A program made the position numbers and the translations under genes. Shown here one piece after another: positions 1 to 37,359 of a stretch of DNA of 64,000 nucleotides. Origin of the DNA: Candidatus Omnitrophota bacterium (GTDB taxonomy: Bacteria > Omnitrophota > Omnitrophia > Omnitrophales > Aquincolibacteriaceae); the NCBI GenBank assembly GCA_030698625.1, contig JAUYMS010000042.1, positions 160,423-224,422 of the forward strand, given 5' to 3'. The notes under the pieces were generated by a model, which was not told the origin of the DNA, made no database searches, and worked only from the letters and a program-made list of their open reading frames with translations. The first letter of the stretch is position 1, and each line of letters starts with the position of its first letter.

Positions 1-2738
1 GAATGGAGCTCAATCATCGCCAGTTGGAACGAATCACCGCCTTCACCGGGCACCAGACCCCGCACACGAACGTCGAATTCCACCCCGCGAAAATTCCGGT
101 TCCTATGGCGGGTATTGGCAGCGCGCACATTTCGGGTAATGGAAATATCGAGGCCCGGATTCCCGATCGCATCTGCATGAAAGCCTTCAAAACCGTCCCG
201 CAAGAATCCGCGCAGTGTCACCCGGTTGCCCCCTGTTGTACGCGTATCCTTAACCGACAGGTGCGCGTAAACGTTTTTTACCGGGTTCAGGTAGATTGCG
301 TTCTGGAAGGCACCGCGCTTCTCCAGGCTCAGAGTTACTTCACGGCTCCCCGTCCTCAGTTCGGACCGCGAATCGTCTCCTGTCGCAAGTGCGGGAACTG
401 AGCCGCGTATGACGGCAATGTAACGTTCAATTTCCTCCGCTGAAATCCGCTCGGAGGGTTCGGCCATGACATCCACGCGCGGCATGAAGAAATACCGGGT
501 CTCTCCGAATCGCTCATACAGCATGCGGTCCCATTTGATACGCTTGAGGCGACCCTTCCTCGCGTAGAGCCTGTCTACGCGTTCCGAAATATACGACTTC
601 TCCGGCACAGTATCCTCTGCCGGTTTTACGACATCACCGCCTCCTAGGGCCTCGCGGTTCAGGTGTTTGAAAAACACGTAGTCCAAGGCAACCTCAAAGA
701 CCTTGGCGTACGGGCCCGTGGTAATCCTGTCGGTCTTAGGGATATCTCCCAGCAAATCCGTGATTGCCAAGTGGCGGCTAACAACCTCGTTGAACGACAG
801 CCCCTGCTTCTGTGCGGCCTCGACGGACAACCAGGCTAGTTTCGTTTTCACCATTTGAACCCAGTGATCATTCGGCTTAATAAACAAGCGGTCGATATCC
901 GCTTTCTTTCGCACATACCCAATGAGTTCGGCTCGATACTCATCTTCGGTCAGATACTTTTCATCGTCTGATCTTAATTCCGAGCGCACGGGCTTAACGA
1001 GATCCGGAGCGGAGCGCGCACGCAGAAATTGGCTCTGGAAAGTTGCTGCGTCAATGCGGTGACGGGACAAAAGGGCTCTGGCAAATTGGGTCACATCCCC
1101 TGCAAGGCGGCCGAGGTCGTGAACACCCTGCGTTTTCAAGGCGTTCTGTGTGAAAGCAAGAAAGGCAACGGACTCCATCGTGGAGTTTTCACCGAACTGG
1201 TGATCGAGGACTGACCGCACATAGGCTTCTTGGCCGTCAAAGTGACTTATGTTCGGGGCTATCAGTGCGTAATTATAATTCTTATCCCGGAAGAATTTCT
1301 TGAACGGTCCTGTATGGAACCCTCCGGTGATCACAACGGCCTTCTTCTCGGGATGCTCGCGAAGCCGGCGATCGATATTCTGCAGCATGCGCTCGTCACG
1401 GATTCTCACCCACCGGTAAAACTCCGCGGCCTTCTCATAGAGCGCGTCGATCTCGGTAATTGCACCGGCCTTCCACGAAAGTCTCGAGCCGTCCGCCGCG
1501 AATCCGCTTGATTCGTTCACGAGCGCCGAAGGGCGGGCCTCAGCAACCGCATTCTCGTCGGTCGGCAGGAGTTCCAGCGCAAAAAGCCTTTTGAGCAGCC
1601 GGTACTTCTTGAGCAGACCCAAGAGGCCCCTGACCTCGTCCGTCTCCGCCAAAACAGATGTAATCTTGTCCGCAAGTGCGTCGAGTTCTGCGAAGAGCCG
1701 CTCGCTATCGAGCTCGCTTCGGAGGATGAGATGCCCTATAAAGCGGGTCAGATTCGGGTACCTGCGAAAGTCAAAGTTCTGCGGCAGGTAGGTCATCATG
1801 CTCTCGAAGAGAAGGCCGGTTTCCGGATCCGGCAATTCGTGGCTGCTCAGATCGCCTTTGAGCAGTTTCTGGACTTCCCCAAGAAGCCCTTTTGGGGCGG
1901 TCCTAAGGAGCCGCAGAAATACCTCCCGCTCTTTTTCGAAAGCGGCGGAATCCATTTGGGTTTCAAACTCTCGAAGCTTGAATAAACGCGAAAGCATCGG
2001 CCAATCGAGCTGATGCACGGGGTCGCTAATATTCAGCTCGAGATGAGCGAGGGCTTGTACCTGAAGGTAATCGAGCCAGTCCGTCATCGCGAAACGTCGC
2101 GACTCGAACCTTTCCTCCTCCTTGAGGAAGTGCCGCAGGTCCTTGCTCAGGCGCTCGCTAGCCAGGCGGTCCATCTGCATATCGAAGCGGCGCAGAAACC
2201 CGTCTGTCTTTTCCCTCTGAGAATGGACATCGGCGAACGCTTTTGCGTTGTTCAGATAGGCATCAAGGTTTTCGATACCGAATGCTTCGACACCTTCCGC
2301 TTCCGCCAGAAACAGTTCAGGCCCTTTCACAAGGGCCTTTTTTGTAAGTTCATCCAGAATTTCCATCGTAACGTCCATGCGTTCAGGCACAAGACGCAAC
2401 AAGTCCGCGTTCAGCTTAAGCGCACTCCCCTCGAGGAGAATCAGCTCCACATCGTAAGCGGAATGCAGGTGATGGAGAATCGCCTGAACTTTCTTTTGCG
2501 CCTCGTAATTGCCATGAGCTGTCTGGAGGTGAATGAGGGTCGGGCCGGTTCCCGAGACAAGATTCTGCACGGCGCCAAGCTCGGCAGGCAGTTGTAGTTG
2601 AAATCCCTGCGGCACGGAAATCTCCCTAACACTATTCGCGTGAAGGATATTCAGGTTGGGCGCTGCCATACCGATATCCTGTGCAAGAAACAAAATCGCA
2701 GTCAGCATGGCTATCCATTTTTTGGTTTTGCTTTTCAT
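1..2738 (-). CDS. Hypothetical secreted protein, partial; the C-terminus lies beyond the left window edge. The ATG is at 2738..2736 and the N-terminus reads MKSKTKKWIAMLTAILFLAQDIGMAAPN, a signal peptide.
   Basis: Manual reverse-complement translation from 2738 downward gives a continuous frame with no stop (checked codon by codon around 2610..2642 and from the start). The + strand ORFs in this span are short, fragmented and in mixed frames. The gene is absent from the track because it runs off the window edge. Confidence 0.6.
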   Translation of the reverse strand, partial: MKSKTKKWIAMLTAILFLAQDIGMAAPNLNILHANSVREISVPQGFQLQLPAELGAVQNLVSGTGPTLIHLQTAHGNYEAQKKVQAILHHLHSAYDVELILLEGSALKLNADLLRLVPERMDVTMEILDELTKKALVKGPELFLAEAEGVEAFGIENLDAYLNNAKAFADVHSQREKTDGFLRRFDMQMDRLASERLSKDLRHFLKEEERFESRRFAMTDWLDYLQVQALAHLELNISDPVHQLDWPMLSRLFKLREFETQMDSAAFEKEREVFLRLLRTAPKGLLGEVQKLLKGDLSSHELPDPETGLLFESMMTYLPQNFDFRRYPNLTRFIGHLILRSELDSERLFAELDALADKITSVLAETDEVRGLLGLLKKYRLLKRLFALELLPTDENAVAEARPSALVNESSGFAADGSRLSWKAGAITEIDALYEKAAEFYRWVRIRDERMLQNIDRRLREHPEKKAVVITGGFHTGPFKKFFRDKNYNYALIAPNISHFDGQEAYVRSVLDHQFGENSTMESVAFLAFTQNALKTQGVHDLGRLAGDVTQFARALLSRHRIDAATFQSQFLRARSAPDLVKPVRSELRSDDEKYLTEDEYRAELIGYVRKKADIDRLFIKPNDHWVQMVKTKLAWLSVEAAQKQGLSFNEVVSRHLAITDLLGDIPKTDRITTGPYAKVFEVALDYVFFKHLNREALGGGDVVKPAEDTVPEKSYISERVDRLYARKGRLKRIKWDRMLYERFGETRYFFMPRVDVMAEPSERISAEEIERYIAVIRGSVPALATGDDSRSELRTGSREVTLSLEKRGAFQNAIYLNPVKNVYAHLSVKDTRTTGGNRVTLRGFLRDGFEGFHADAIGNPGLDISITRNVRAANTRHRNRNFRGVEFDVRVRGLVPGEGGDSFQLAMIELH

Positions 2739-2909
2739 AAGTTGCATTTCAAGATAGAATATTGCCCTCGGCTGATTACTTGGTAATAAGCCTAAGTCCA
2801 TGGGAATAAAAGAGTTGATAAAGGCTACCCGGCGCTTGGAGACTCTTCAAATTTTGAGCGCTTGCGGTATAACATCAACTAACATTGACAGGCAGGGTGC
2901 AAAAATTGA

Positions 2910-5861
2910 ATGCCGTCATCTAACCCCTTACCTATAGGCATGTCACAAGAGAATCAAATCCAGACAGTCGGCAGAAAAGTCCTCGAGCTAGCGCGGCGCG
3001 AGGAAGTGAAATTTGCTAAGAAGCATCGTTGGGAAAATGCCCTTTTGGACTGGTGCATGGCCAACGAAGAGCTCAAAAACCGTACTTTTCGTTTTATCGA
3101 TGTCTTTCCCCAATTAAAGTCTTCGAAGTCGGTACTGCAGCATATCCGGGAATATTTTCCCCTTTCCGAGCACCGCCTGCCGCAGGCGATACGCGCCGGG
3201 CTGGTCTTGACTCATCCGGGACTACTGACTCGAGGCGCCGTACACGGTGTCACGCATGCCATGTTCATGAAGCTATCGAAATTCTTCGTTGCCGCCGCAA
3301 ACGAAAAGGACCTCGAGAAAATTCTGGATGATCTGGATCGTGAAGGCGTCACGAGTTCCATCGACCTGCTCGGCGAGAAAACCATGAGCGAGGCCGAGGC
3401 AGAGATCTGTTTTCAGCGCTATCAGTCGCTGATCCGTACGCTCGGCAAGAAGAAGTGGGGCTTTAAAAAACAGAATGTCTCGGTGAAACTTTCAGCTCTC
3501 GATCCCCTCTTTGATCCCATTGATCCGAATGGAACCAGCGAGCGTATCCGTTGGCGCTTGCGAGAGCTGGTGCGGCTGGGCACGGAGCAACAGGTGTTCA
3601 TTCACATCGATATGGAAGAGTTTGAAATGCGCGATCTGACGCTCAAGATTGTGCGCGACCTTTTACACGAAGATGAATTTGCTCCGGGCATAGCTCTCGG
3701 AATCGTCTTGCAGGCTTATCTGCGCGACGCTGAAGACTGTCTCGACGGCATTCTCTCGTGGGCAAAGACATTGGCAAAACCGCTTACGATTCGGCTCGTG
3801 CGGGGTGCCTATTGGGATCAGGAGATCATGAAGGCCAAGGAGCGCAGCTGGCCGATCCCCGTGTTCCTGCGCAAAGACGAGACCGACGCCATGTTCGAAA
3901 AACTCACGGTCCGCATCCTGGACGAGGCCCCGCACGTAAACTTAGCCCTGGCAACCCATAACGTGCGGTCAATCGCACATGCAATAACATGCGCCAAGGC
4001 CAAGGGCATCGGCGACGAAAACCTTGAATTTCAATTACTCTACGGAATGGGCGAACCCTTGATGCACGTTCTCAGAGAAATGAATTACGCACCCCGTATG
4101 TACACTCCGATCGGCGACCCTGTCTGGGGCATGGCGTATCTGGTTCGGCGACTCCTTGAAAACGTTTCATCGCAATCGTTCGTCAGACGCAGCGTTCACG
4201 ACGAGTCCGCCGTAGGGGAATTGTTAAGAGCCCCACTCGCCATGATTGATCAAAACGACACTGAGGGCCCACCCGAGAAAAATAATCATTACCACCCCTG
4301 CCCTTCCCTGCGTTTTTTCAACCATAAGATCAGGCAGGATTTTTCGGACAATCTGGAGGAAGTCATCCTTACGCTGAGAAATCCCAAGCTTCCCATCGTT
4401 GTCAACGGAAAGTCGAAACAGAAAAAGGTCCGCACCCAGATTATTTCGCCGATTGACGGCGTCACAAAGGTTGCCAGCGCCTCAAACGCCGATGCCTCGG
4501 ATGTCGATCAAGCCATTCGCGTCAGCCTCGATAAATTCCGATCGTGGGCAAATACACCCGTTCATGTGCGCGCTAATTATCTGCGGCGCACTGCGGAGTG
4601 GATGCGGGACCACCGCTACGAAATGGCGGCCCTGGAAGTGTTGGAGGTGGGCAAGCCCTATCGCGAAGCGGATGCCGATGTGAAGGAGGCGATTGATTTT
4701 CTTAACTACTACGCATACTCCGCAGAGAAACTCATGCAGGACCATCCGACAGAGACGCTCGCCGACGAGGTCAACTTCACCCGGCCGCGGCCGCGCGGCG
4801 TGACCGCGGTGATCGCACCGTGGAATTTTCCGATTGCGATTTTAACCGGCATGAGCGCGGCAGCTTTAGTCACCGGCAATCCGGTTTTACTCAAGCCGGC
4901 CGAGCAATCGCCCCTTACGGCGTGGAAAGTATTTGAGGCGTTTCGCGAAGCCGGGGTTCCGCCCGGAGTGCTTCATTACCTGAGCGGCGTTGGTGAAGAG
5001 ATCGGTTCATTAATGGCTGATGACCCTCGCGTTTCGGTGGTGGCCTTTACCGGCTCAAGAGAAGTCGGACTCCAAATTGTGGCCCGGTCTAATTTACGTA
5101 ACCCATTACAGCGACATGTGAAAAAGACAGTCATCGAGATGGGCGGAAAGAATGCTGCCATCGTCGATGAGACCGCCGATTTTGATCAGGCGATTCCCGA
5201 TATCCTCTACTCGGCATTCGGTTATGCCGGGCAAAAGTGTTCCGCCCTCTCCCGGTTGATCGTTCTCGATGACGTCTACGACGCTTTCATCAAGCGATTA
5301 ATTCAAGCTGCGGGAAGTTTTCCCGTCGGAGATCCCGCCGACCCGCGGACGCTTTGCGGGCCGGTCATCGACGAGCAAGCGCGCCAGAGAATTCTAAGCG
5401 CGATCGAAGAAGCAACCGTCAAGGGCAAGGTGCTTTTCAAAGCGGATGTCTCAAACCTCGCCGCCGGTTACTATGTGCCGCCGGCAATCATTGCCGACCT
5501 CCCTGCAAATTCACGGCTTCTGCGGGATGAGCTCTTCGGCCCTATTCTTGCGGTCATACGAGCAAAGAATTTTGAGGAGGCCTTGAACCTCGCCAACGAT
5601 TCCGACTTTGCACTGACCGGAGGCCTCTTCAGCCGCACCCCCTCACACATCGAAAGAGCCAAGCAAGAGTTTGAATGCGGGAATTTCTACGTCAACCGGC
5701 CCACAACCGGCGCTATCGTTCAGCGACAGCCTTTCGGGGGTTACAACCTTTCAGGAACGGGAACTAAGGCGGGAAGTGCCGAATACCTGCGGGAATTCTT
5801 CATTGAGCGCACCATTAGCGAAAACGTATCACGCCACGGTTTCGCGCCCCTTAATCTTTAA
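2910..5861 (+). CDS. putA: Bifunctional proline dehydrogenase / delta-1-pyrroline-5-carboxylate dehydrogenase (PutA-type, no DNA-binding domain)
   Basis: 983 aa. The N-terminal half resembles a proline dehydrogenase TIM barrel. The C-terminal half is an aldehyde dehydrogenase fold with VIEMGGKNA and catalytic-Cys GQKCSA motifs. Confidence 0.88.
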   Translation: MPSSNPLPIGMSQENQIQTVGRKVLELARREEVKFAKKHRWENALLDWCMANEELKNRTFRFIDVFPQLKSSKSVLQHIREYFPLSEHRLPQAIRAGLVLTHPGLLTRGAVHGVTHAMFMKLSKFFVAAANEKDLEKILDDLDREGVTSSIDLLGEKTMSEAEAEICFQRYQSLIRTLGKKKWGFKKQNVSVKLSALDPLFDPIDPNGTSERIRWRLRELVRLGTEQQVFIHIDMEEFEMRDLTLKIVRDLLHEDEFAPGIALGIVLQAYLRDAEDCLDGILSWAKTLAKPLTIRLVRGAYWDQEIMKAKERSWPIPVFLRKDETDAMFEKLTVRILDEAPHVNLALATHNVRSIAHAITCAKAKGIGDENLEFQLLYGMGEPLMHVLREMNYAPRMYTPIGDPVWGMAYLVRRLLENVSSQSFVRRSVHDESAVGELLRAPLAMIDQNDTEGPPEKNNHYHPCPSLRFFNHKIRQDFSDNLEEVILTLRNPKLPIVVNGKSKQKKVRTQIISPIDGVTKVASASNADASDVDQAIRVSLDKFRSWANTPVHVRANYLRRTAEWMRDHRYEMAALEVLEVGKPYREADADVKEAIDFLNYYAYSAEKLMQDHPTETLADEVNFTRPRPRGVTAVIAPWNFPIAILTGMSAAALVTGNPVLLKPAEQSPLTAWKVFEAFREAGVPPGVLHYLSGVGEEIGSLMADDPRVSVVAFTGSREVGLQIVARSNLRNPLQRHVKKTVIEMGGKNAAIVDETADFDQAIPDILYSAFGYAGQKCSALSRLIVLDDVYDAFIKRLIQAAGSFPVGDPADPRTLCGPVIDEQARQRILSAIEEATVKGKVLFKADVSNLAAGYYVPPAIIADLPANSRLLRDELFGPILAVIRAKNFEEALNLANDSDFALTGGLFSRTPSHIERAKQEFECGNFYVNRPTTGAIVQRQPFGGYNLSGTGTKAGSAEYLREFFIERTISENVSRHGFAPLNL

Positions 5862-18103: not shown

Positions 18104-18468
18104 TTGGCTAGCAAGTCCTCGATCGCTTTGAGGAGTTCTTGGATATCAAAGGGCTTCTGAAAAACACGATTAGCTCCCAGCTTCCGCGCCAAGTCTAGAT
18201 AATCCACAGGGATGAGTTTGGCTCCGCCCGACATTGCGATAATGCGGAGGTTGGGAGCCTCCTTCCTCAGGATGCGAATGGTCTCAACACCCTCCTGCTC
18301 AGGCATGAGAAGATCCGTAATAACGAGATCTGCCGCCTTTTCCCGGAACCGATCTACACCTTGTTTTCCGTCGGCGGCCAGAGTTACCTCATAGCCACTT
18401 TCAGTCAGAAAGGTTCCGAGTATCTCGCGAATATCCGTATTATCATCAATCACAATAATGTGCGCCAC
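18100..18468 (-). CDS. Stand-alone response regulator receiver (CheY-like)
   Basis: IIVIDDN...DLVITDLLMPEQEG...KP. REC domain only. Confidence 0.8.
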   Translation of the reverse strand: MAHIIVIDDNTDIREILGTFLTESGYEVTLAADGKQGVDRFREKAADLVITDLLMPEQEGVETIRILRKEAPNLRIIAMSGGAKLIPVDYLDLARKLGANRVFQKPFDIQELLKAIEDLLAK

Positions 18469-18486
18469 AGCTAACTCCTCTTGTTA

Positions 18487-18888
18487 TTACTCGGAATAAT
18501 GAACCGCCAGTGTTCTTTCAACATCGGCAAGAAGTTGGTCAATCTCAAAAGGTTTTGGGATATATCGCTCTGCCATGAGTTCCATAGCCCTGCTGACATC
18601 CTCGGGTTTCTGAGCCCCGGTCATCATAATAACCGGGATATGCTTTAAGGTCTCGTCTGACTTTATCGCCTGCAATGCCTCAAGCCCGTCCATTTCCGGC
18701 ATGGTTACATCCATGAGTATGAGGTGCGGCTTGATCGCCCGAGCCTTGTCGACGGCGTCTTTGCCGTTTATCGCCCCGACAGCTTCATAACCGCTCTCTT
18801 TTAAAACCTCAATAACGACGTCGCGAATCTCCTGTTGGTCGTCGGCGACAAGAATCTTTTTGCCCTGATGCGGGTTTCCTTCTGCCAT
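18487..18888 (-). CDS. Stand-alone response regulator receiver (CheY-like)
   Basis: ILVADDQ...LILMDVTMPEMDG...KP. REC domain only. Confidence 0.8.
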   Translation of the reverse strand: MAEGNPHQGKKILVADDQQEIRDVVIEVLKESGYEAVGAINGKDAVDKARAIKPHLILMDVTMPEMDGLEALQAIKSDETLKHIPVIMMTGAQKPEDVSRAMELMAERYIPKPFEIDQLLADVERTLAVHYSE

Positions 18889-18890
18889 GA

Positions 18891-19784
18891 CTAATAGACC
18901 TCTATCTTCAAACGTTTTTCGGACTTCATTTTTTTGACTAATGACCCCTCAACACCCGCCTCGGCGCCCATTTTATCGAGAACGGGGAGGATCCCCGCCT
19001 CCATCCCTTTTAGACCGCATATAAAAATCATGCTCCGCGGGTTCGTGAGTACCGGCTTAAGATCATCAGCTTGAAGCGCCATCTTGACCTGAACATACAT
19101 TCTGTCGTCCCGCGTCGGAACCTCATCGGGAACAGGATTGATCTCTTCCCGGCTTACGGCCCTATGGTAATGAAAATTTTTATGTTTTCGATAAGATTCG
19201 AACTCTTCATTATAAAAGCCCGTATCTCCATACTTCACGCCGAAAAAAAGCCACACCTGTCCTTTGTACCCGTTAGCAAAGAGCTGCTTCAACATGCCGC
19301 GATACGGTGCAATCCCCGTACCTGTTGCCACAAGCACAAGATCACGGCCTACAGCATCCGGCGGGAGAACGAAATTACGCCCAACGGGGCCGGTTAGGTT
19401 GACTTTATGCCCTGGCTCGAGATCGCATAGATAATTGCTGGCGACACCCGGAGTCTGAACCTGCCCCGGCGTATCACGGCGGAAATGACGCACCACACAG
19501 AGCGAGAGGGTCTGCTGATCTCCGTCGTCACCGGGGCTATCTGAAGCAACGGAATACAAACGCAACTTGTGGGGCTTTCCCGTGGCGGGGTCCGTACCTT
19601 CGGCAAGCACCCCCACACTCTGGCCCGGGGCATAAGGAAATTTCTCTGAATATCGAAAGGTCATGTGCCTCACGTCGAATTCCGCTCCCCGGCTTTCCGC
19701 TGTCAGACGGATATTGCTCAGGGTTTCCGCGCTGAGAGGGGCTTGTAAGGTGAATAAATTTAGGGCTATTTCCTGGGGCATCAA
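18891..19784 (-). CDS. Ferredoxin-NADP+ reductase, plant-type (FNR)
   Basis: RLYSVAS FAD-binding motif, GTGIAP NADP motif, C-terminal ...EVY. Confidence 0.85.
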   Translation of the reverse strand: MMPQEIALNLFTLQAPLSAETLSNIRLTAESRGAEFDVRHMTFRYSEKFPYAPGQSVGVLAEGTDPATGKPHKLRLYSVASDSPGDDGDQQTLSLCVVRHFRRDTPGQVQTPGVASNYLCDLEPGHKVNLTGPVGRNFVLPPDAVGRDLVLVATGTGIAPYRGMLKQLFANGYKGQVWLFFGVKYGDTGFYNEEFESYRKHKNFHYHRAVSREEINPVPDEVPTRDDRMYVQVKMALQADDLKPVLTNPRSMIFICGLKGMEAGILPVLDKMGAEAGVEGSLVKKMKSEKRLKIEVY

Positions 19785-20179
19785 GATTCTAGGAGTATAC
19801 TACCTCTATTGACAGCCCGGCAACGCCCTTTTTACGGGGCATTGACTGCATTTTAACGTTCACAAAGCGATAGAAGCGACCGAAAACAACAAAGAGTGGG
19901 AATTTCCTTCGCCCCTTTATTAAGTCGCTTCCCTCTCAAATAATAATTGTTGTCGGAATATACCGATGTCGTATAATGAACGCGTTTGCAACATTTCTCT
20001 TGCCGCTCTATTCTTTTAACTGAGGAACTTGTAAAGCCAGCGGAAAACGCCAGTACATGATGCATAAAAGCTTTGCTCGGCAGTTCCTGAGATTCTAGTT
20101 CGACTCACAGCCTTTTCCCATTCCCACTCTTCGAGGTCTCCTCGTCACTTCGCTCCTTGCCTTATCCGCTGTTTCCTCT

Positions 20180-21925
20180 ATGCCTGTCGCCTACGCCGAC
20201 TTATTGGGGGATACAAGCGACGAGGACCTTCTAGGTGAACGGAAGAGTGGAAGAGACACTGCCGACGCCACAGATTTAGATGACGCTCGCAAGGCGCACG
20301 AGGAGCTCTTTGCCGAGAATCGTTATCCGTCGGCCGCAACCTGCGCCACTTGTCACGCCAAGCAGTATCGCGAATGGTCGGTTTCTTCACACTCGTATTC
20401 ACAGCTCAGTCCGATCTACATGGCACTCAACAACACGATTAACGTGTTGGCGAGCGGTAGCAACGGCGATTTTTGTTTGCGCTGCCATAGCCAGGTCGGA
20501 GCAAACTTAGGCGAGAATCCCCGCATGTCGAATCTTGAGCGCCACCCGACATCCCGTGAGGGGATTACTTGTACCGTCTGTCACCGTATTAATAAGAAAT
20601 ATGATAAAGTCAGCGGCCGCATCGGCCTTGTTGAGGGCGGCCTGACCGAGCCCATCTATGGTCCTGGTGGCAACAAGATTCTTTCTGAGGTTCTGAGGGA
20701 CCCCAAGTTCAAAGTCGTAACCGATCCGAACCAGCCCGGCCGGAAAATTCACGACGAAGTTAAGTTCTTTGCGCCCATCTCCACATCAACGTTCTGCGGC
20801 TCATGCCATGACGTGACGCTTTTCAATGGCTTCCGTCTGGAAGAGGCCTTCAGTGAATACCGCATGTCCCCCGCGGCGCGGAAGGGCATTAGCTGTCAGG
20901 ATTGCCATATGGGCAAAGTTCAAGGTGTGGTCTCGGGTTATGATTTCGGACCGGCTGCGGTCGTGGGCGGCGTTCCTACCGAATCCAGAAAACTTACAAA
21001 TCATTTTTTTGCCGGTCCCGATTATTCCATCATTCACCCCGGCATCTTTCCTCACAACACCAAAGCTCAGGAGATGGCGACCTTGGAAGAGTGGCTGCGA
21101 TTTGATCACAAGGCCGGCTGGGGTACTGATTCTTTTGAAAATAAAGTCCCGCGCGATTTCAAATTTCCCGACCGCTGGCAGGCCCTTGACGACCGCTATG
21201 ACGCTCGCGCAATCCTCAACGATCAGTTCGAACTCCTGGCATGGGCGCGCGAACGACGGTTAGAGGCCTTGCGCAATGGGTACGGCCTCGGCGAGATCAT
21301 AATCAAGAAAGCGACGTCTTCAGGCATCAAGTTTAAGGTAGAGGTGAAAAACTTGACCAATGGCCACAACGTACCCACCGGGTTCACGGGTGAGCGGCCG
21401 GTTTGGCTTGATGTAACGGTCACCGACAGCGCCGGAACTGTCGTATTTCGGTCGGGCGACCTGGATCCTAACGGAGATTATCGCGACGACCATTCTTCGT
21501 ATGTGCGAACCGGCCGAGTACCTCTCGATACGCATCTATTCACGCTGCAATCGAAGTTTGTGGTCTCCAACATACGCGGGTCAGAGCGCGAACGCGTTAT
21601 CCCTATTCCCTACCCTCTTACGTCCCTTCCGCGCGTGCTGCCCGCACCGCAGTCTTTAGTGATCACGGGCGAGCCGTTTACCGAACGCAATCATCATAAG
21701 GGGATTCAGCCCGATGGTCGCCGCTGGGCGATGTATAAGGTGAAGGCCAAAGCCCTTACCGGGAAAAGTCCTTATAAGGCGAATGTCAAGTTGTGGAATG
21801 CGATGGTGCCGGTCAATCTTGTCGAAGCCATTCAATGGGTCGGGTTTGACTACGGGATGAGCGCCCGCGAAGTCGCCGATAACCTCCCAAAAAGAAATAC
21901 TATGGGAAAAGGATATTGTCATTAA
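20180..21925 (+). CDS. Pentaheme c-type cytochrome: five CxxCH motifs in the N-terminal ~240 aa, then a ~340-aa heme-free C-terminal domain
   Basis: CATCH, CLRCH, CTVCH, CGSCH, CQDCH. No signal peptide follows the annotated ATG, but the 27 codons in-frame upstream encode one (see findings). Confidence 0.8.
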   Translation: MPVAYADLLGDTSDEDLLGERKSGRDTADATDLDDARKAHEELFAENRYPSAATCATCHAKQYREWSVSSHSYSQLSPIYMALNNTINVLASGSNGDFCLRCHSQVGANLGENPRMSNLERHPTSREGITCTVCHRINKKYDKVSGRIGLVEGGLTEPIYGPGGNKILSEVLRDPKFKVVTDPNQPGRKIHDEVKFFAPISTSTFCGSCHDVTLFNGFRLEEAFSEYRMSPAARKGISCQDCHMGKVQGVVSGYDFGPAAVVGGVPTESRKLTNHFFAGPDYSIIHPGIFPHNTKAQEMATLEEWLRFDHKAGWGTDSFENKVPRDFKFPDRWQALDDRYDARAILNDQFELLAWARERRLEALRNGYGLGEIIIKKATSSGIKFKVEVKNLTNGHNVPTGFTGERPVWLDVTVTDSAGTVVFRSGDLDPNGDYRDDHSSYVRTGRVPLDTHLFTLQSKFVVSNIRGSERERVIPIPYPLTSLPRVLPAPQSLVITGEPFTERNHHKGIQPDGRRWAMYKVKAKALTGKSPYKANVKLWNAMVPVNLVEAIQWVGFDYGMSAREVADNLPKRNTMGKGYCH

Positions 21926-23451
21926 TGTCGCCCTGTAAAGGACATTCCGCTTATTACAAGGTTCTGTGTTGTTTTATCGCAGCGGCGATGCTTGTTTCCG
22001 TCCCTCTGCCCCGCTTAGGTTGGGCCGGAGGCGAACATGGCGGAATGGAGCACGGCGGAAGTGAATTTAAAGAACTCCATTCTAATTGGTACGACCCCTT
22101 TTACCCGTTGGGGCAGACGAAGGGTGCTAGCCGGCTCTCTGATGTGCCGGTTCCTTTTCAGGGAGTTGACAAGATACCGCCCCGCCCCAAACTCCATTTG
22201 GAACTCGGAGATCCGTTTCTGGATTCCGGTAATCTCTTCCCGGGTTTTGAATTACCTACGGGAGCCGTTTGGCAGCCGCGTCTTTGGAGTTACATGATTT
22301 ACCGTACCGCCCTACACTCTTTCGAGGTCAACGCGGATAGCCGGACATCGGAATGGGTCCATCGCTTGGACACGTATACTTCCTTGCAGCTGACGGGAAC
22401 CGAAAGAATTTTGGTTTCATTCCGCCCACTCGATAAGAACCGCTTTGATCAGTTTACGCGCTTTGATCTCGAAGATCCCAATAATGACGAGGGCTTCCGC
22501 CAGGAATTCAACTTGAATTTGCGTGCCCTTTTCATGGAAGGTGATATGGGTAGTCTCTTTCCCTTTTTAGATCCCGAGGGCATGCGGCCCATGGATTTCG
22601 GCTTTTCTGTCGGCCGTCAGAACCTCAACTTTCAAGATGGCATTATGCTCAATGACGACATGGATGCCTTGGCAATCGTGCGTAACAATATACGTATTCC
22701 CGCCATCGGTATCTCCAATTTGCGCATAACCGGTATGTGGGCCTGGAAAGGCAATGACCGCGGCGGCGGCATCACACCGCCAAACCGCCGTAGTCCGGAA
22801 GCCGATGTCTTTGGTTTATTCAATTCAGCTGATTTCCACAAGAGCACTATTAACATCGACGGTATCTTCATTTCGGATAATAAGACCAACGGCGGTGATG
22901 CCTTCTATACCGGGGTCTCGTCAATTCAGCGCATGGGTGCCTTCAATACAACGTTCCGCTGGCTGGGATCATATGCCGAAGATTCTACGACGCCGCAGAC
23001 AGGCTCGGGCCAGCTGCTGACGGGAGAAATATCCTGGACTCCGCATTCTTCAGACGACGTTGTCTATTTCAACCCCTTCATAGCCTTTGGCAATTACACG
23101 CAGGCAGGCCGCGAACCTATTCTTGGCGGTCCCCTAGCCCCACTCGGCATTCTCTTTGCATCACCGAATCTCGGCGATTATCGCGGCGAGATCGGCGGGG
23201 CCGCTCAAGATGTCTTTGGCGCGGCAACTGGTTATCAGGCCTTCTGGAATGATCACCACACCAACCTTGTCTTGGAGACCTCTTTCCGCAAGGATTATGG
23301 CGGACGCGGCACAGGCGTTTGGGGCGCTGGTTTTCAGTTGCAGCAGAAATTAGGTCAGCATGTCCAACTTCAGTTTGAAGCCTTCGCCTCTCTGCAAGAA
23401 AACCGCAAACGCGGTTACGGGGGACGTTCGGAAATTCTACTTGTATTCTAG
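21916..23451 (+). CDS. Outer-membrane beta-barrel protein (porin-like), likely partner of the flanking cytochromes
   Basis: N-terminal signal peptide. His/Gly-rich GGEHGGMEHGG segment. Alternating amphipathic beta-strand pattern. C-terminal ...SEILLVF with a terminal Phe, the OMP signature. 10-nt overlap with the upstream cytochrome. Confidence 0.6.
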   Translation: MSLMSPCKGHSAYYKVLCCFIAAAMLVSVPLPRLGWAGGEHGGMEHGGSEFKELHSNWYDPFYPLGQTKGASRLSDVPVPFQGVDKIPPRPKLHLELGDPFLDSGNLFPGFELPTGAVWQPRLWSYMIYRTALHSFEVNADSRTSEWVHRLDTYTSLQLTGTERILVSFRPLDKNRFDQFTRFDLEDPNNDEGFRQEFNLNLRALFMEGDMGSLFPFLDPEGMRPMDFGFSVGRQNLNFQDGIMLNDDMDALAIVRNNIRIPAIGISNLRITGMWAWKGNDRGGGITPPNRRSPEADVFGLFNSADFHKSTINIDGIFISDNKTNGGDAFYTGVSSIQRMGAFNTTFRWLGSYAEDSTTPQTGSGQLLTGEISWTPHSSDDVVYFNPFIAFGNYTQAGREPILGGPLAPLGILFASPNLGDYRGEIGGAAQDVFGAATGYQAFWNDHHTNLVLETSFRKDYGGRGTGVWGAGFQLQQKLGQHVQLQFEAFASLQENRKRGYGGRSEILLVF

Positions 23452-23503
23452 ACAGCCCATACCGTATTGCTATTTCATATCAGTCAAACGAAAGGATAAT
23501 CAT

Positions 23504-24511
23504 ATGCGTCTCTTTACCGCACTGTTATCTGCCATAATATTTTTTGCGAGTCCTGCGACAGCCGCGCAGATGTGGGATCCCATCGCCGATAACGAAAAAA
23601 TTACCGGCCCGGAATCCTGTGCGGAATGTCATGCAGACACCTTTCGAGTCTGGGAAGGGATGCATCACGCCACCACGTTTCGGGATATGCCTCGAAGTGA
23701 CGCGGCCCGTGAAATAGCCGATAAATTGGGCATTCAACGCATCAAAACCGAGCCCTTGTGTCTCAGCTGCCATTTTACGACGATGCTAACGGATACGGGA
23801 AAATCTAAGCCCGTGTCGGGTATTTCCTGTGAATCTTGTCACGGGGCCGGAAAGGATTGGATCAACGTCCACAGTGACTATGGCCCGGGAGCCGATAAGG
23901 ACACAGAGTCTGCTGATCACCGCGCCAAGCGACTTGCCGATTCCGAAGCCGCGGGTATGATTCGTCCGAGAAATCTGCACGCCTGGGCCTCCAATTGCTA
24001 CAACTGTCATACCGTGCCCGACGAAAAACTCGTAAACATGGGGGGACACCCCGCCGGAAGTAAGTTTGAACTTGTGTCCTGGTCTCAGGGAGAAGTGCGC
24101 CATAATGTCTGGTTTTCCGGCGGTGTGGACAATGTAATGGCTACACCCGAACGCAAACGCGTCATGTACGTTACCGGTCAGGCCCTCGACCTCGCATATG
24201 CCCTGCGCGGTCTTTCTAAAGCCACCGAAGGCGCCACCTATGCAATCACCATGGCGAAGAGGGCCAAGGCGGCAATGATCCGTCTCGGACAAATTGATGA
24301 AGCCCTTACCATTCCCGAAGTAAAAGAAATCCTTAAAGTTGCCGACGCCGTCAAGCTCGATCTCAATAATGAGGCTCAGTTGTCCGGCGCCGCTGACGAC
24401 GTTGCAAACCAGGCATTAAAATTTACTGAGGCCCATGACGGAAGTGCGCTTGCCGCATTGGACTCCCTCATTCCTTCGCCGGACGCCTTCCGCGGAACTC
24501 CCGCTGCCTAA
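23504..24511 (+). CDS. Tetraheme c-type cytochrome, secreted
   Basis: Start placed at MRLFTALLSAIIFFASPATAA (signal peptide, RBS AAAGGA upstream). CAECH, CLSCH, CESCH, CYNCH. The track ORF starts further upstream at 23360, inside the OMP gene. Confidence 0.8.
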   Translation: MRLFTALLSAIIFFASPATAAQMWDPIADNEKITGPESCAECHADTFRVWEGMHHATTFRDMPRSDAAREIADKLGIQRIKTEPLCLSCHFTTMLTDTGKSKPVSGISCESCHGAGKDWINVHSDYGPGADKDTESADHRAKRLADSEAAGMIRPRNLHAWASNCYNCHTVPDEKLVNMGGHPAGSKFELVSWSQGEVRHNVWFSGGVDNVMATPERKRVMYVTGQALDLAYALRGLSKATEGATYAITMAKRAKAAMIRLGQIDEALTIPEVKEILKVADAVKLDLNNEAQLSGAADDVANQALKFTEAHDGSALAALDSLIPSPDAFRGTPAA

Positions 24512-24659
24512 ATAATTCCTCGCAGGAGGTGTTGAAAATTCGCAACATTTTCTGCGCGAGTGTACATTTATTTCGTCATTCCATTTCTTCCGAGATATTT
24601 TTTCAAGCCGCCCGCAATAGTATTGTATTCCGGTCTTTTTCCCATATACTTAGCGATCG

Positions 24660-25856
24660 ATGGAAAATAAATTCTCCCATATTGAAAAGAGGAAATACCG
24701 ACGCAAGCCGACATCCGTGGCTGTCCGTTCCCTAAAAGAGGCGAAACGCGGCCTTTGGAAGCGCGCAAAGGCACTTGATCTTTCAGATACCGGCATACGC
24801 ATTTCCCTGCGCGAAGCGCCCGCTAAGGGAAGCCGCGTGCACCTCTCGCTCAAGTCAGAGCAAGGCAGCCGCCGCAGGCGTGTGGACGGGAAGGTTGTGT
24901 GGAAAAAGGGGCTGGAATGCGGCATACAATTTGAAAACCTTCGAGGAACTCCGAACAACGAGAAGTTGCTATTCTACATGGGCGACCGCATGTGTGAGTT
25001 TGTCGTCAAGTCAGCAGGATCCAATCTTGTCGCGCTGCCCGTTACAACGCTCACGGAGCACAAGGCCGCGTATCGGTTGATGTATCGAGAGTATCTGGCG
25101 CGGGGCTACTGCGCTAAACACGCGTCGAAGATGTACTATACTTCATACAGCTTGCTTCCCACTTCACGCACTTTTATTCTGAAGCAGCAAAAGCATCTCA
25201 TTGGGACGTTGTCCCTCTTTGTGGATTCACCCTGTGGACTTCCCATGGACCACACGGCCCCCGAAGTGACCGGCCAGCTACGCTTTCAGGGGCGACGCGT
25301 TGCAGAGGCAAGCCTCCTTGCCCTTGACCCAAACGCCTTTCGTGAGGGCACTCCCCCGCTTACCTACGCGCATCGCCTCGCGGGTTCCTTCTGGCTGTTC
25401 AAGACTTTGCTGGATTATGCGCGCCAAATCGCCGACGTTACGGATCTCGTCGTAACGGTGCACCCTAACCATGAGCACCTTTACCGCAACCTGGCATTCA
25501 AATCCATAAAACCCGCGACACCCTACGTCTTTGCCCGCGGCCATTTGGGGCTCCCGATGCATTTGGATGTGCGAGAGCTCGAGGCCCATCTTCCCGTCGG
25601 CACATGTTTTAAAAAATTCTTTTTCGACAATCTCCTGCCGTTAGATCAGCTAGCGAAGACTTACCGCTGGACGCCGGTTGCACTAAGTGACTTTATCAAC
25701 AAGCGGCAGGCAGAATGGCCCCAGATGATGCAGGGGGCCGTAGAATGGCTTAAGAGACGTTACCCGCTCGTGGCAGCCAGGACACGGCAAAAGAGCCACA
25801 AGACATCTGGTCTAAATGACAAAGGAGAGCCGCAGCTCTCCTTTGTCGGTATCTGA
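24660..25856 (+). CDS. PilZ domain fused to a FeeM/AHL-synthase-like N-acyl amino acid synthase domain (GNAT-related)
   Basis: N-terminus RKYRRKP...DLSDTGIRIS matches the PilZ RxxxR / D-x-S-x-G-G c-di-GMP-binding motifs. The C-terminal ~270 aa include AAYRLMYREYLARGYC, resembling the conserved core of exosortase-associated N-acyl amino acid synthases (TIGR03694-like). Confidence 0.55.
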   Translation: MENKFSHIEKRKYRRKPTSVAVRSLKEAKRGLWKRAKALDLSDTGIRISLREAPAKGSRVHLSLKSEQGSRRRRVDGKVVWKKGLECGIQFENLRGTPNNEKLLFYMGDRMCEFVVKSAGSNLVALPVTTLTEHKAAYRLMYREYLARGYCAKHASKMYYTSYSLLPTSRTFILKQQKHLIGTLSLFVDSPCGLPMDHTAPEVTGQLRFQGRRVAEASLLALDPNAFREGTPPLTYAHRLAGSFWLFKTLLDYARQIADVTDLVVTVHPNHEHLYRNLAFKSIKPATPYVFARGHLGLPMHLDVRELEAHLPVGTCFKKFFFDNLLPLDQLAKTYRWTPVALSDFINKRQAEWPQMMQGAVEWLKRRYPLVAARTRQKSHKTSGLNDKGEPQLSFVGI

Positions 25857-28427: not shown

Positions 28428-29447
28428 CTAGGTTTTAAGTACGATGCGATAGCGCGCCTTATTCTGAGCAACTTTTTCGAAAGCTTGATTCACATCCTTA
28501 AGGGCCACGACCTCTACTTCCGCCTCTATAGAGTGGCGTGCCGAAAACTCCAGCATCTCACGAATTCTCGTCCTGCTTCCAATCATGCTCCCGCATATTG
28601 TTTTCTGCCCAAGGACAAGCGGCAGCGCGGAAATACTCATTGGCTCCGGCGGAACCCCAACAATACAGAGTGACCCAAGCGGACGTTACGCGACGAGATA
28701 ACTCTGCCAGTCCAAACTGACATTGACCGTAGAAATAATGAAATCCAGTGATCCCTTCGCCGATTCCATCTGTTTCGCATCCCTGCTCAAAATAAATCGA
28801 TGAGCACCTAGCCTCTTCACTTCTGCTTCTTTAGAAGCGGACGAAGAGAAGGCTGTCACTTCACATCCGAAAGCACGCGCGTACTTAACAGCGAGGTGCC
28901 CGAGGCCGCCAATGCCCACAACACCGACCTTCATATTGGATGTTACATGATACTGACGCAGCGGAGAAAAAACCGTGATGCCTCCGCATAATAGCGGCGC
29001 CGCCCCTTCCGAGGACAGATTATCCGGTATTGCAAAGGCAAAACGGCTGTCTAATCGAATTCGATCGGCATACCCCCCGAATCGCCCGACACAGGTCGCC
29101 TGATTCTGTGAGCACAATTGTTCTTCGCCCCGGTCGCAATACTCGCAAGACCAGCAAGATCCGCACTGCCAGCCGACACCAACACGCTGGCCGTCTTCAA
29201 ACTGATTCACTTCCGGCCCCCTCTGGGCGATTGTCCCTACGACTTCATGGCCCGGCACCAAAGGATAGGTGCTGAAACCCCAATCGTTCTTTACCAGGTG
29301 CAAATCGCTATGGCATATGCCGCAATGGGTAATCGCGATTTCAATATCCCATGATCCCAAAACACCCGGTTCATAATCAAATTTACTGAGCGAAGCTCTT
29401 TGTTCTAAGGCAGCATAAGCATGAATCTGTGTCGCAGTCTTTTGCAT
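28428..29447 (-). pseudogene. Zn-dependent alcohol dehydrogenase (YahK / cinnamyl-ADH type) interrupted by an in-frame TAA at 28686..28688
   Basis: Track ORFs 28686..29447 and 28428..28640 are in the same frame. Read across the stop: ...DFIISTVNVSLDWQSYLVA*RPLGSLCIVGVPPEPMSISALPLVLGQKTICGSMIGS.... This is collinear with YahK (GHEVVG, GVVGIGGLGH). The stop sits where homologs have Lys/Leu. Confidence 0.75.
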
Positions 29448-36834: not shown

Positions 36835-37359
36835 TTACTTCGCCGATTTTACAAACTGAAGCGCAAGCGAATTCATACAATAGCGCTTGCCCGTCGGGTG
36901 GGGTCCGTCTTCAAAAACATGACCCAAATGCGATCCGCATCGGGCGCAATGCACTTCGATGCGCTTCGCAAAAAAACTACGGTCAATCGAAAAACCGATA
37001 TTCTGCTCCGCGATCGGCTCCCAGAAGCTAGGCCATCCTGTATGCGAATCATACTTCACGGCAGAACGAAAGAGCTCTGTGCCGCAAGCAATGCACCGGT
37101 AGATCCCGTTTTCGCCATACTTATTGTACTCACCCGTATAGGCCATCTCCGTTCCGTGCTCGCGCGTTATATGAAAGACCTTGGGGTCAAGAATCTTTCT
37201 CCATTCGTCTTCGCTCTTTTCAATTTTCTCAACTTGCACGAGCTTCTCCTGACTGCTGTCGTAAACGGCTATGGTCTCAGCAGCTCTGACCGAGCCCCGT
37301 CCCAAAAACACTAAAACCAGAACCCCCAAAATAACTTTAAGAATCAAAGTGAATCGCAT
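36835..37359 (-). CDS. msrB: Peptide-methionine (R)-S-oxide reductase MsrB with an N-terminal signal peptide
   Basis: CIACGTELF...HCARCGSHLGHVFEDGP...GKRYCMNS. Hydrophobic N-terminus MRFTLILKVILGVLVLVFLG. Confidence 0.85.
   Translation of the reverse strand: MRFTLILKVILGVLVLVFLGRGSVRAAETIAVYDSSQEKLVQVEKIEKSEDEWRKILDPKVFHITREHGTEMAYTGEYNKYGENGIYRCIACGTELFRSAVKYDSHTGWPSFWEPIAEQNIGFSIDRSFFAKRIEVHCARCGSHLGHVFEDGPHPTGKRYCMNSLALQFVKSAK

Follow-up and report, generated by a model that had tools for sequence, protein, structure and literature searches.

A predicted Sec signal peptide behind an in-frame stop codon suggests a recently inactivated pentahaem cytochrome gene in an Omnitrophota bacterium

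The 64-kb stretch of Omnitrophota DNA analysed here (the window) carries a gene for a pentahaem c-type cytochrome, whose annotated start codon is preceded in frame by a predicted export signal and, further upstream, by a TAG stop codon. Two more genes of the same operon follow it, and an interrupted dehydrogenase gene lies on the other strand. The features are as follows.

19950..19977, plus strand: candidate sigma-70-like promoter (TTGTCG, 16-nt spacer, TATAAT), by consensus match only
20057..20098, plus strand: 13-codon in-frame ORF, MMHKSFARQFLRF, ending at the TAG, by direct reading
20096..20098, plus strand: in-frame TAG with identical codons on both sides (TTC TAG TTC)
20120..20122, plus strand: near-cognate codon ATT, at which a start would give MPTLRGLLVTSLLALSAVSSMPVAYA
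20120..20197, plus strand: predicted Sec-type signal peptide coding region, with cleavage predicted after 20197, before Asp 20198
20180..21925, plus strand: pentahaem c-type cytochrome with a non-haem C-terminal domain (PGAP MDP3921048.1, 581 aa), by five CxxCH motifs and Pfam matches
21889..21893, plus strand: A5 run with a one-base frameshift relative to all homologs, by tail comparison
21894..21938, plus strand: apparent ancestral C-terminal tail, out of frame, EILWEKDIVINVAL, with its stop at 21936-21938, by comparison with homolog tails
21925..23451, plus strand: intact downstream operon gene (508 aa) with an N-terminal signal peptide, ending in LLVF, by comparison with the neighbour at homologous locus L081
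23504..24511, plus strand: intact downstream cytochrome c554-like gene, 65% identical to the L081 neighbour
28686..28688, minus strand: TAA nonsense codon in an Ahr-type zinc alcohol/aldehyde dehydrogenase (ADH), by model match and in-frame continuation

The cytochrome ORF, whose start both PGAP and Prodigal placed at ATG 20180, contains five CxxCH motifs and matches the Pfam models Cytochrome_C554, MtrC/MtrF, c7 and c3, as well as, weakly, the PDB entry for cytochrome c552 (5ze8, E=1e-8). Its family comprises more than 3000 homologs, of which the best non-self match is 74% identical; among the 120 homologs listed, most are 590-700 aa long, and thus longer than the 581 aa of the annotated product. 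Relaxed constraint, in the form of substitutions at conserved sites or further decay in the gene body, was not seen: of the 235 positions with at least 95% conservation across the family, the window cytochrome keeps 230, a score that 21 of the 120 homologs do not exceed.

Direct reading of the 5' end bears out the layout on which the original prediction was built. Two adjacent ATG codons (20057-20062) lie in frame with the cytochrome ORF and open a frame that reads MMHKSFARQFLRF until the TAG. There follow 27 sense codons (20099-20179), FDSQPFPIPTLRGLLVTSLLALSAVSS, and then ATG 20180, which begins the 581-codon ORF. These 27 codons contain no ATG, GTG or TTG, and consequently no canonical start lies in frame between the TAG and the hydrophobic core of the export signal; the sole near-cognate start codon in the interval is ATT 20120-20122. 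A rare CTG start had also been proposed, but the only CTG is at 20087, upstream of the TAG, and since none follows the TAG, such a start is excluded. The promoter candidate, with 10 of 12 consensus matches, is upstream of every candidate start; three sigma-70-like sites were found in the region, where shuffles give an expectation of 0.4. A terminator-like hairpin at 20076-20091 was rejected as no more than expected by chance, and an Rfam scan of 19600-20400 returned only a sub-threshold match to a fungal snoRNA, which is at the level of chance.

The c-type cytochromes require translocation before haem attachment, which takes place on the periplasmic side (Ccm and Ccs systems). It was originally postulated that the annotated N-terminus lacks a signal peptide and that the true one lies upstream of the annotated ATG, behind the TAG, and both parts of this proposal are supported. 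Read from ATT 20120, the Kyte-Doolittle 11-residue maximum is 2.26, versus 0.64 for the annotated N-terminus, and neither a hydrophobic stretch nor a twin-arginine motif was found after ATG 20180. The predicted leader consists of a short n-region with an Arg (PTLR), the h-region GLLVTSLLALSAVSS, and the c-region MPVAYA, and the codon log-odds of 20120-20197 equal the N-terminal mean of real genes in the window. In its n-h-c order, in having AYA at -3 to -1, in the acidic residues past the cleavage site, and in a position matching that of the homolog leaders, it resembles the Sec (signal peptidase I) leaders of periplasmic c-type cytochromes; it differs from them in having no in-frame ATG, GTG or TTG downstream of the TAG.

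The closest homologs, which are 72-74% identical, all have leaders and share the mature N-terminal pattern A/DDxLLGDD (the slash marks the cleavage site). The predicted cleavage AYA/DLLGD aligns with LHA/DDDLLGDD, LYA/DDSLLGDD and VWA/DE..DDLLTDD in these homologs (P0001-P0004), so that small residues at -3 and -1 of the window protein (AYA/D) stand opposite those of P0001 (LHA/D), P0003 (LYA/D) and P0004 (VWA/D). ATG 20180 then falls at position -6 of the signal peptide, and the 20 nt upstream of it are 15% purine, versus a mean of 59% at real starts in the window. Orthologous loci, to which the original prediction had looked for a check, agree: at 70 of 77 homologous genomic loci, the open frame preceding the first haem motif offers a canonical start and then a hydrophobic leader.

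How often such a configuration would arise by chance was gauged from the 2064 ATG triplets of the window, counted on both strands. Nineteen of them have 27 open codons before them, together with a hydrophobic stretch of equal or greater strength and a small-x-small motif close to the ATG, and four of the 2064 meet all of this and also lack a canonical start. The configuration is thus uncommon, which is not decisive alone; what is decisive is the alignment of the cleavage site and of the mature N-terminus with those of the homologs. Judged by this alignment, the 27 codons together with MPVAYA (core 20120-20197) encode a real Sec signal peptide, one that would direct a pentahaem c-type cytochrome to the periplasm. 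Furthermore, because the cleavage site and mature N-terminus align in this way and 70 of the 77 loci have a start and a leader, the annotated ATG 20180 is a codon within the signal peptide, and the native start lies elsewhere.

There are two candidates for the position of the native start. The 20 nt upstream of ATG 20057 are 60% purine, like those of real window starts, and the promoter candidate at 19950-19977 also favours this start, while the codon log-odds of 20057-20119 are ambiguous and become coding-like only from 20120 onward. The peptide before the TAG, MMHKSFARQFLRF, had been regarded as a good n-region. However, in local alignments with the 120 homolog leaders and 2000 shuffles it showed no significant similarity, its scores being those of unrelated leaders and shuffles, and so it has no demonstrable homology to the N-termini of the family. 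A likeness seen by eye between MMHKSF.. and the leaders of P0001 (..FWRF..) and P0006 (MQKS.., PPF.., SMPAAAA) was dropped, as the alignment was not significant. A start at ATT 20120, on the other hand, would give a compact and typical signal peptide of 26 residues, MPTLRGLLVTSLLALSAVSSMPVAYA. The 20 nt upstream of the ATT are 25% purine and contain no Shine-Dalgarno (SD) motif; the missing SD is weak evidence, because only about one third of the window genes have one. The values for RNA folding near all of the candidate starts are within the range of real starts.

Given these findings, the 13-codon ORF (20057..20098) may be the original N-terminus, now severed from the rest, or a separate mini-ORF with no relation to the gene. 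By a rough likelihood, a nonsense mutation in a long leader begun at 20057/60 and the loss of a start codon at 20120 would carry similar weight. In this weighing, either an in-frame ATG must have come to lie upstream by chance, or a near-cognate codon must have been well placed by chance.

The 3' end of the gene also departs from the family. In the annotated frame the C-terminus reads ..ADNLPKRNTMGKGYCH (also read as ..REVADNLPKRNTMGKGYCH) before its stop, in place of the family form ..REV[AG]DAVVAGKEVLWEKDLNINV. Directly after the A5 run, the +1 frame gives KEILWEKDIVINVAL and a stop, matching the family tail ..GKEVLWEKDLNINV; the alternative C-termini of the window cytochrome are ..PKRNTMGKGYCH and ..KEILWEKDIVINVAL. 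Only when read in the +1 frame past 21889-21893 does the sequence give the conserved tail KEILWEKDIVINV and the motif LW[EQ][KR], which is present in 85 of 105 homolog tails. The frameshift replaces the conserved last ~15 residues and accounts for 2 of the 5 highly conserved positions missed by the window cytochrome. It is a second lesion of the gene, one that the original prediction did not list, although the protein might tolerate it.

Beyond the cytochrome gene, the in-frame TAA that had been reported in the ADH gene holds. The ADH ORF (28686..29447, minus strand) matches the Ahr aldehyde-reductase model over only positions 2-247 of 335, and the domain carries on for a further 85 in-frame codons past the TAA at 28686-28688; the stop presumably falls where E. 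coli Ahr has Leu. Six single-substitution versions of the ADH and its neighbouring ORFs were looked up in the protein collection and none was present, a result that is uninformative. In a screen of same-frame neighbouring ORFs (at least 40 and at least 150 codons), the ADH TAA was the only other in-frame stop to be confirmed, the screen being blind to cases like the cytochrome TAG and liable to miss smaller ones. Two other candidates, a histidine kinase pair (58750/59458) and a response-regulator pair (61505/62348), were rejected as lesions, since the members have their own starts and SDs and are separate genes, and the larger inter-ORF gaps of the window contain small intact genes. Ordinary bacterial genomes carry a pseudogene load of roughly a few percent, and the 2 disrupted genes among the ~60 in the window are within such a load.

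Both operon genes downstream of the cytochrome are intact. They align with their L081 counterparts to their C-terminal ends (64-65% identity), with the N-terminal leaders unaligned. For the 508-aa product, which is 64% identical to its counterpart, the unaligned part comprises the first ~58 residues, among them the signal peptide. No Pfam or NCBIfam match was found for this product, which is probably an outer-membrane beta-barrel.

TAG is an ordinary stop in this genome: among 42 gene stops in the window, there are 8 TAG, 17 TAA and 17 TGA. In addition, a tRNA scan of the 64-kb window found no tRNA gene. None of the 77 homologous loci examined has the window arrangement, in which an upstream ATG is cut from the leader by an in-frame stop. 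Two of these MAG loci (L019 and L056) have differently disrupted 5' ends, and one of the two is a frameshift in a large contig, which from its naming is guessed to be a long-read assembly.

In the Logan assembly of SRR13727534, a 7.9-kb contig matches window positions 18135-24925 (6,791 nt) with 100% identity, the TAG included. Agreement between this independent assembly and the window makes a plain artefact of the assembler less likely. When the cytochrome, the downstream gene and the upstream FNR-like gene were looked up by exact sequence, the only return was one Logan contig, from SRR13727534, so that the organism was seen in a single sequencing run. An exact-pattern scan of JGI metagenome contigs with a 29-mer around the TAG, in which the stop was wild-carded, gave 0 matches, and no intact cytochrome allele was present among 5.8 billion clustered proteins, the best non-self match again being 74% identical.

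The most economical reading, given two lesions in one gene, the ADH nonsense codon, the normal use of TAG and the identical assemblies, is that the cytochrome gene is a recently inactivated or very weakly expressed allele, a young pseudogene whose start was rescued in annotation. This is rather likely, though well short of certain. In this model, a single point mutation would have left the signal peptide with no canonical start codon, whether by converting a sense codon to TAG in a long leader begun at ATG 20057/20060 or by changing an ATG at 20120 to ATT. The one-base frameshift in the A5 run adds a second lesion, with the conserved C-terminal ~15 residues replaced. PGAP and Prodigal would have "rescued" the gene by taking the first downstream ATG, and a product begun at 20180 would remain in the cytoplasm and carry no haem, because haem attachment is periplasmic. 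The start contexts also count for inactivation, as neither ATT 20120 (purine fraction 0.25) nor ATG 20180 (0.15) is purine-rich, the mean at real starts being 0.59. From the comparisons above we infer that function has been lost and that the lesions are true mutations rather than consensus errors.

Relative to its homologs, then, the gene has a lost start or an internal stop set against a homolog-supported N-terminus, and it has a frameshift. It thus resembles bacterial pseudogenes that have undergone rescue by a gene caller, in its 5' in-frame stop or lost start, its 3' homopolymer frameshift, the nonsense codon in the neighbouring ADH gene, and the shortened PGAP protein without the N-terminal signal of the family. 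It differs from them in a gene body that is free of further decay (230 of 235 positions). The lesions therefore look young: because the gene body is clean and both downstream operon genes are intact, inactivation must be very recent, or else the gene is still working. A real inactivating mutation, the simplest cause, was absent from the explanations first offered for the export signal behind the TAG; the signal itself stands, and the 3' frameshift adds weight to the omitted cause.

If the gene is still working, the cytochrome might be functional and start at AUU 20120-20122, with the 26-residue signal peptide MPTLRGLLVTSLLALSAVSSMPVAYA, a reading that we consider unlikely. Initiation at AUU has been demonstrated in bacteria for E. 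coli infC and pcnB, the only confirmed cases there, and its efficiency in E. coli is ~0.02-3% of that of AUG (bioRxiv 10.1101/063800). The window gene is like these two in having a single ATT where the n-region of the signal peptide would begin, and a typical n-region (MPTLR) is what this lone near-cognate codon would open; it is unlike them in lacking an SD or a purine-rich leader, the 20 nt upstream being rich in pyrimidines. The codon usage, coding-like from 20120 and ambiguous before, the lack of homology between the pre-TAG peptide and other leaders, and the apparent constraint on the remaining gene and operon are all consistent with this start. In opposition are the low efficiency and extreme rarity of confirmed natural AUU starts, the 3' frameshift, which is left unexplained, and the 70 of 77 homologous loci, those of the nearest relatives (at most 74% identity) included, that offer an ATG, GTG or TTG upstream of the leader. 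Furthermore, we know of no autoregulatory logic for an AUU start of a cytochrome. In such a reading the 13-codon ORF and its TAG would be a mere 5' leader, or else a small uORF that aids re-initiation, with termination 22 nt upstream of the AUU. A full signal peptide with an Arg-containing n-region begins exactly at the lone near-cognate ATT, as it would in an AUU-initiated gene, and this observation counts against inactivation.

A further possibility, to which we give a similarly low probability, is that sequencing or consensus calling introduced the TAG, and perhaps also the additional A and the TAA of the ADH gene, or that the MAG consensus took these over from a minority strain; the true gene would then be intact from ATG 20057/60. 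Two different assemblers gave the same sequence across 6.8 kb; however, the sequence comes from a MAG, and a single set of reads may underlie both assemblies. The location of the frameshift in a homopolymer, the start-like context upstream of ATG 20057, and the similar N-terminal disruption at 2 of the 77 homologous MAG loci are what such errors would predict. Nevertheless, substitutions that create stops make up only a small part of all substitutions, and two of them in 64 kb would require an implausible base-error rate: two random nonsense codons would imply ~1e-3, far above Illumina consensus accuracy. In addition, no intact allele was present among the clustered proteins or in the JGI contigs.

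Less likely again is a gene that is alive and expressed at a trickle, in which the 13-codon ORF would be translated to its TAG, after which the ribosome would resume, by re-initiation at AUU 20120 or by a hop between the two TTC codons. If so, small and possibly regulated amounts of an exported pentahaem cytochrome would be made in Omnitrophota.

Bypass of the TAG by recoding, after a start at ATG 20057/60, is improbable, whether by a suppressor or near-cognate read-through, by pyrrolysine, or by a +6 hop in which peptidyl-tRNA-Phe moves from TTC 20093 to the identical TTC 20099. Short ribosomal hops over stop codons with identical flanking codons have been described in E. coli, and TTC TAG TTC has the geometry for one; the initiation context of ATG 20057 is also normal. 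Yet identical flanking codons arise by chance in a few percent of cases, and the resemblance to bacterial short hops and stop read-through ends with them, there being no stimulatory element, no conservation and a TAG that is a normal stop, so that the hop is possible in a formal sense only. The stop is followed by a T, a strong termination context in E. coli, and a second recoding event would be needed at the 3' end of the gene. A literature search found nothing linking Omnitrophota to stop-codon recoding and nothing relevant for the run accession. The read-through originally suggested, taken as a property of the genome, is contradicted by the 8 of 42 genes that end in TAG, by the lack of a tRNA gene in the 64-kb window, and by the lack of the same ATG-stop-leader arrangement at any homologous locus examined. 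Finally, that the annotation is right, and that a protein starting MPVAYADLL is cytoplasmic or exported by another route, is hardly credible: no canonical start precedes ATG 20180 in the long ORF, and both gene callers picked it, but it sits at -6 of a signal peptide aligned with homologs, has 15% purine upstream and no hydrophobic or twin-arginine motif downstream, and would deny a c-type cytochrome the translocation that must precede haem attachment.

Every part of this finding is familiar, from the Sec signal peptide and the operon of multihaem cytochromes to the nonsense and frameshift lesions and the misannotated start; the finding is real but ordinary. Were AUU initiation or a bypass of the TAG true, an uncultured phylum would gain one of the rare natural examples of non-canonical initiation or recoding, although nothing found favours either. 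In terms of annotation, MDP3921048.1 is a model cut short at its N-terminus, in which neither the export signal nor the damaged state of the gene can be seen, and it illustrates a general trap, in which a gene caller moves to an internal ATG and thereby conceals a 5' lesion. Thus, wherever extracellular or periplasmic electron transfer is inferred for this Omnitrophota MAG from this cytochrome, the cytochrome should be treated as probably non-functional.

The in-frame TAG that precedes the signal-peptide coding stretch of the pentahaem cytochrome gene has identical Phe codons on both of its sides, TTC TAG TTC (window 20093-20101, + strand). Identical codons flanking a stop are the geometry required for a short ribosomal hop across it; here, the arrangement is probably a coincidence. 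Of 77 homologous loci, two likewise have a disrupted 5' end:

L056, about 2640-3060: frameshift separating the signal-peptide/first-haem region from the rest of the gene
L019, about 470-890: in-frame stop 13 codons 5' of the conserved region; no leader

Judging from its naming, the large contig of L056 looks like a long-read MAG assembly.

Further disruptions or shortened gene models are present in the window, one of them at the 3' end of the cytochrome gene itself:

21889-21938, + strand: cytochrome gene, reading frame shifted by one base at an A5 run; family tail in the other frame
28428-29447, - strand: Ahr-type zinc aldehyde/alcohol dehydrogenase, interrupted by TAA at 28686-88
36835-37359, - strand: MsrB, 174-aa ORF from the ATG at 37359

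The conserved tail of the cytochrome family, KEILWEKDIVINVAL*, can be read in the +1 frame only, and the TAA that closes the current frame overlaps the ATG of the next gene (TAATG, 21923-27). In the dehydrogenase, the remainder of the domain stays in frame beyond the TAA, a codon that occupies the place of a Leu in E. coli Ahr. This gene apparently has no PGAP protein record. The PGAP model for MsrB (MDP3921067.1, 134 aa) begins at an internal Met, while the 174-aa ORF has a strong SD and a clear N-terminal signal peptide, MRFTLILKVILGVLVLVFLGRGSVRAA. MsrB is a second case in the window of an annotated start that strips an export signal, here with a normal ATG available.

The cytochrome begins a three-gene module, which is directly followed by a fusion protein:

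20180-24511, + strand: pentahaem cytochrome, 508-aa protein and c554-like cytochrome
24660-25856, + strand: fusion of an N-terminal PilZ (c-di-GMP-binding) domain with an N-acyl amino acid synthase domain of the FeeM type

The 508-aa protein has a signal peptide, an outer-membrane barrel-like end (..LLVF) and no family match. The module looks like an uncharacterised porin-cytochrome-type unit. In the homolog search, the cytochrome did not retrieve itself because its 90%-identity cluster (that of protein P0121) is represented by an unrelated 42-aa peptide, P0122, apparently through an artefact of clustering in the database. Many MAGs of Nitrospinota and of marine Alphaproteobacteria have homologs of the cytochrome, at 59-74% identity. 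The loci covered were L001-L081, and the complete three-gene order was confirmed in L081 only. Although the MAG is labelled Omnitrophota, the nearest relatives of its cytochrome, at no more than 74% identity, belong to Nitrospinota and Alphaproteobacteria, a discrepancy that suggests that the module may have been transferred laterally or that the binning may be in question.
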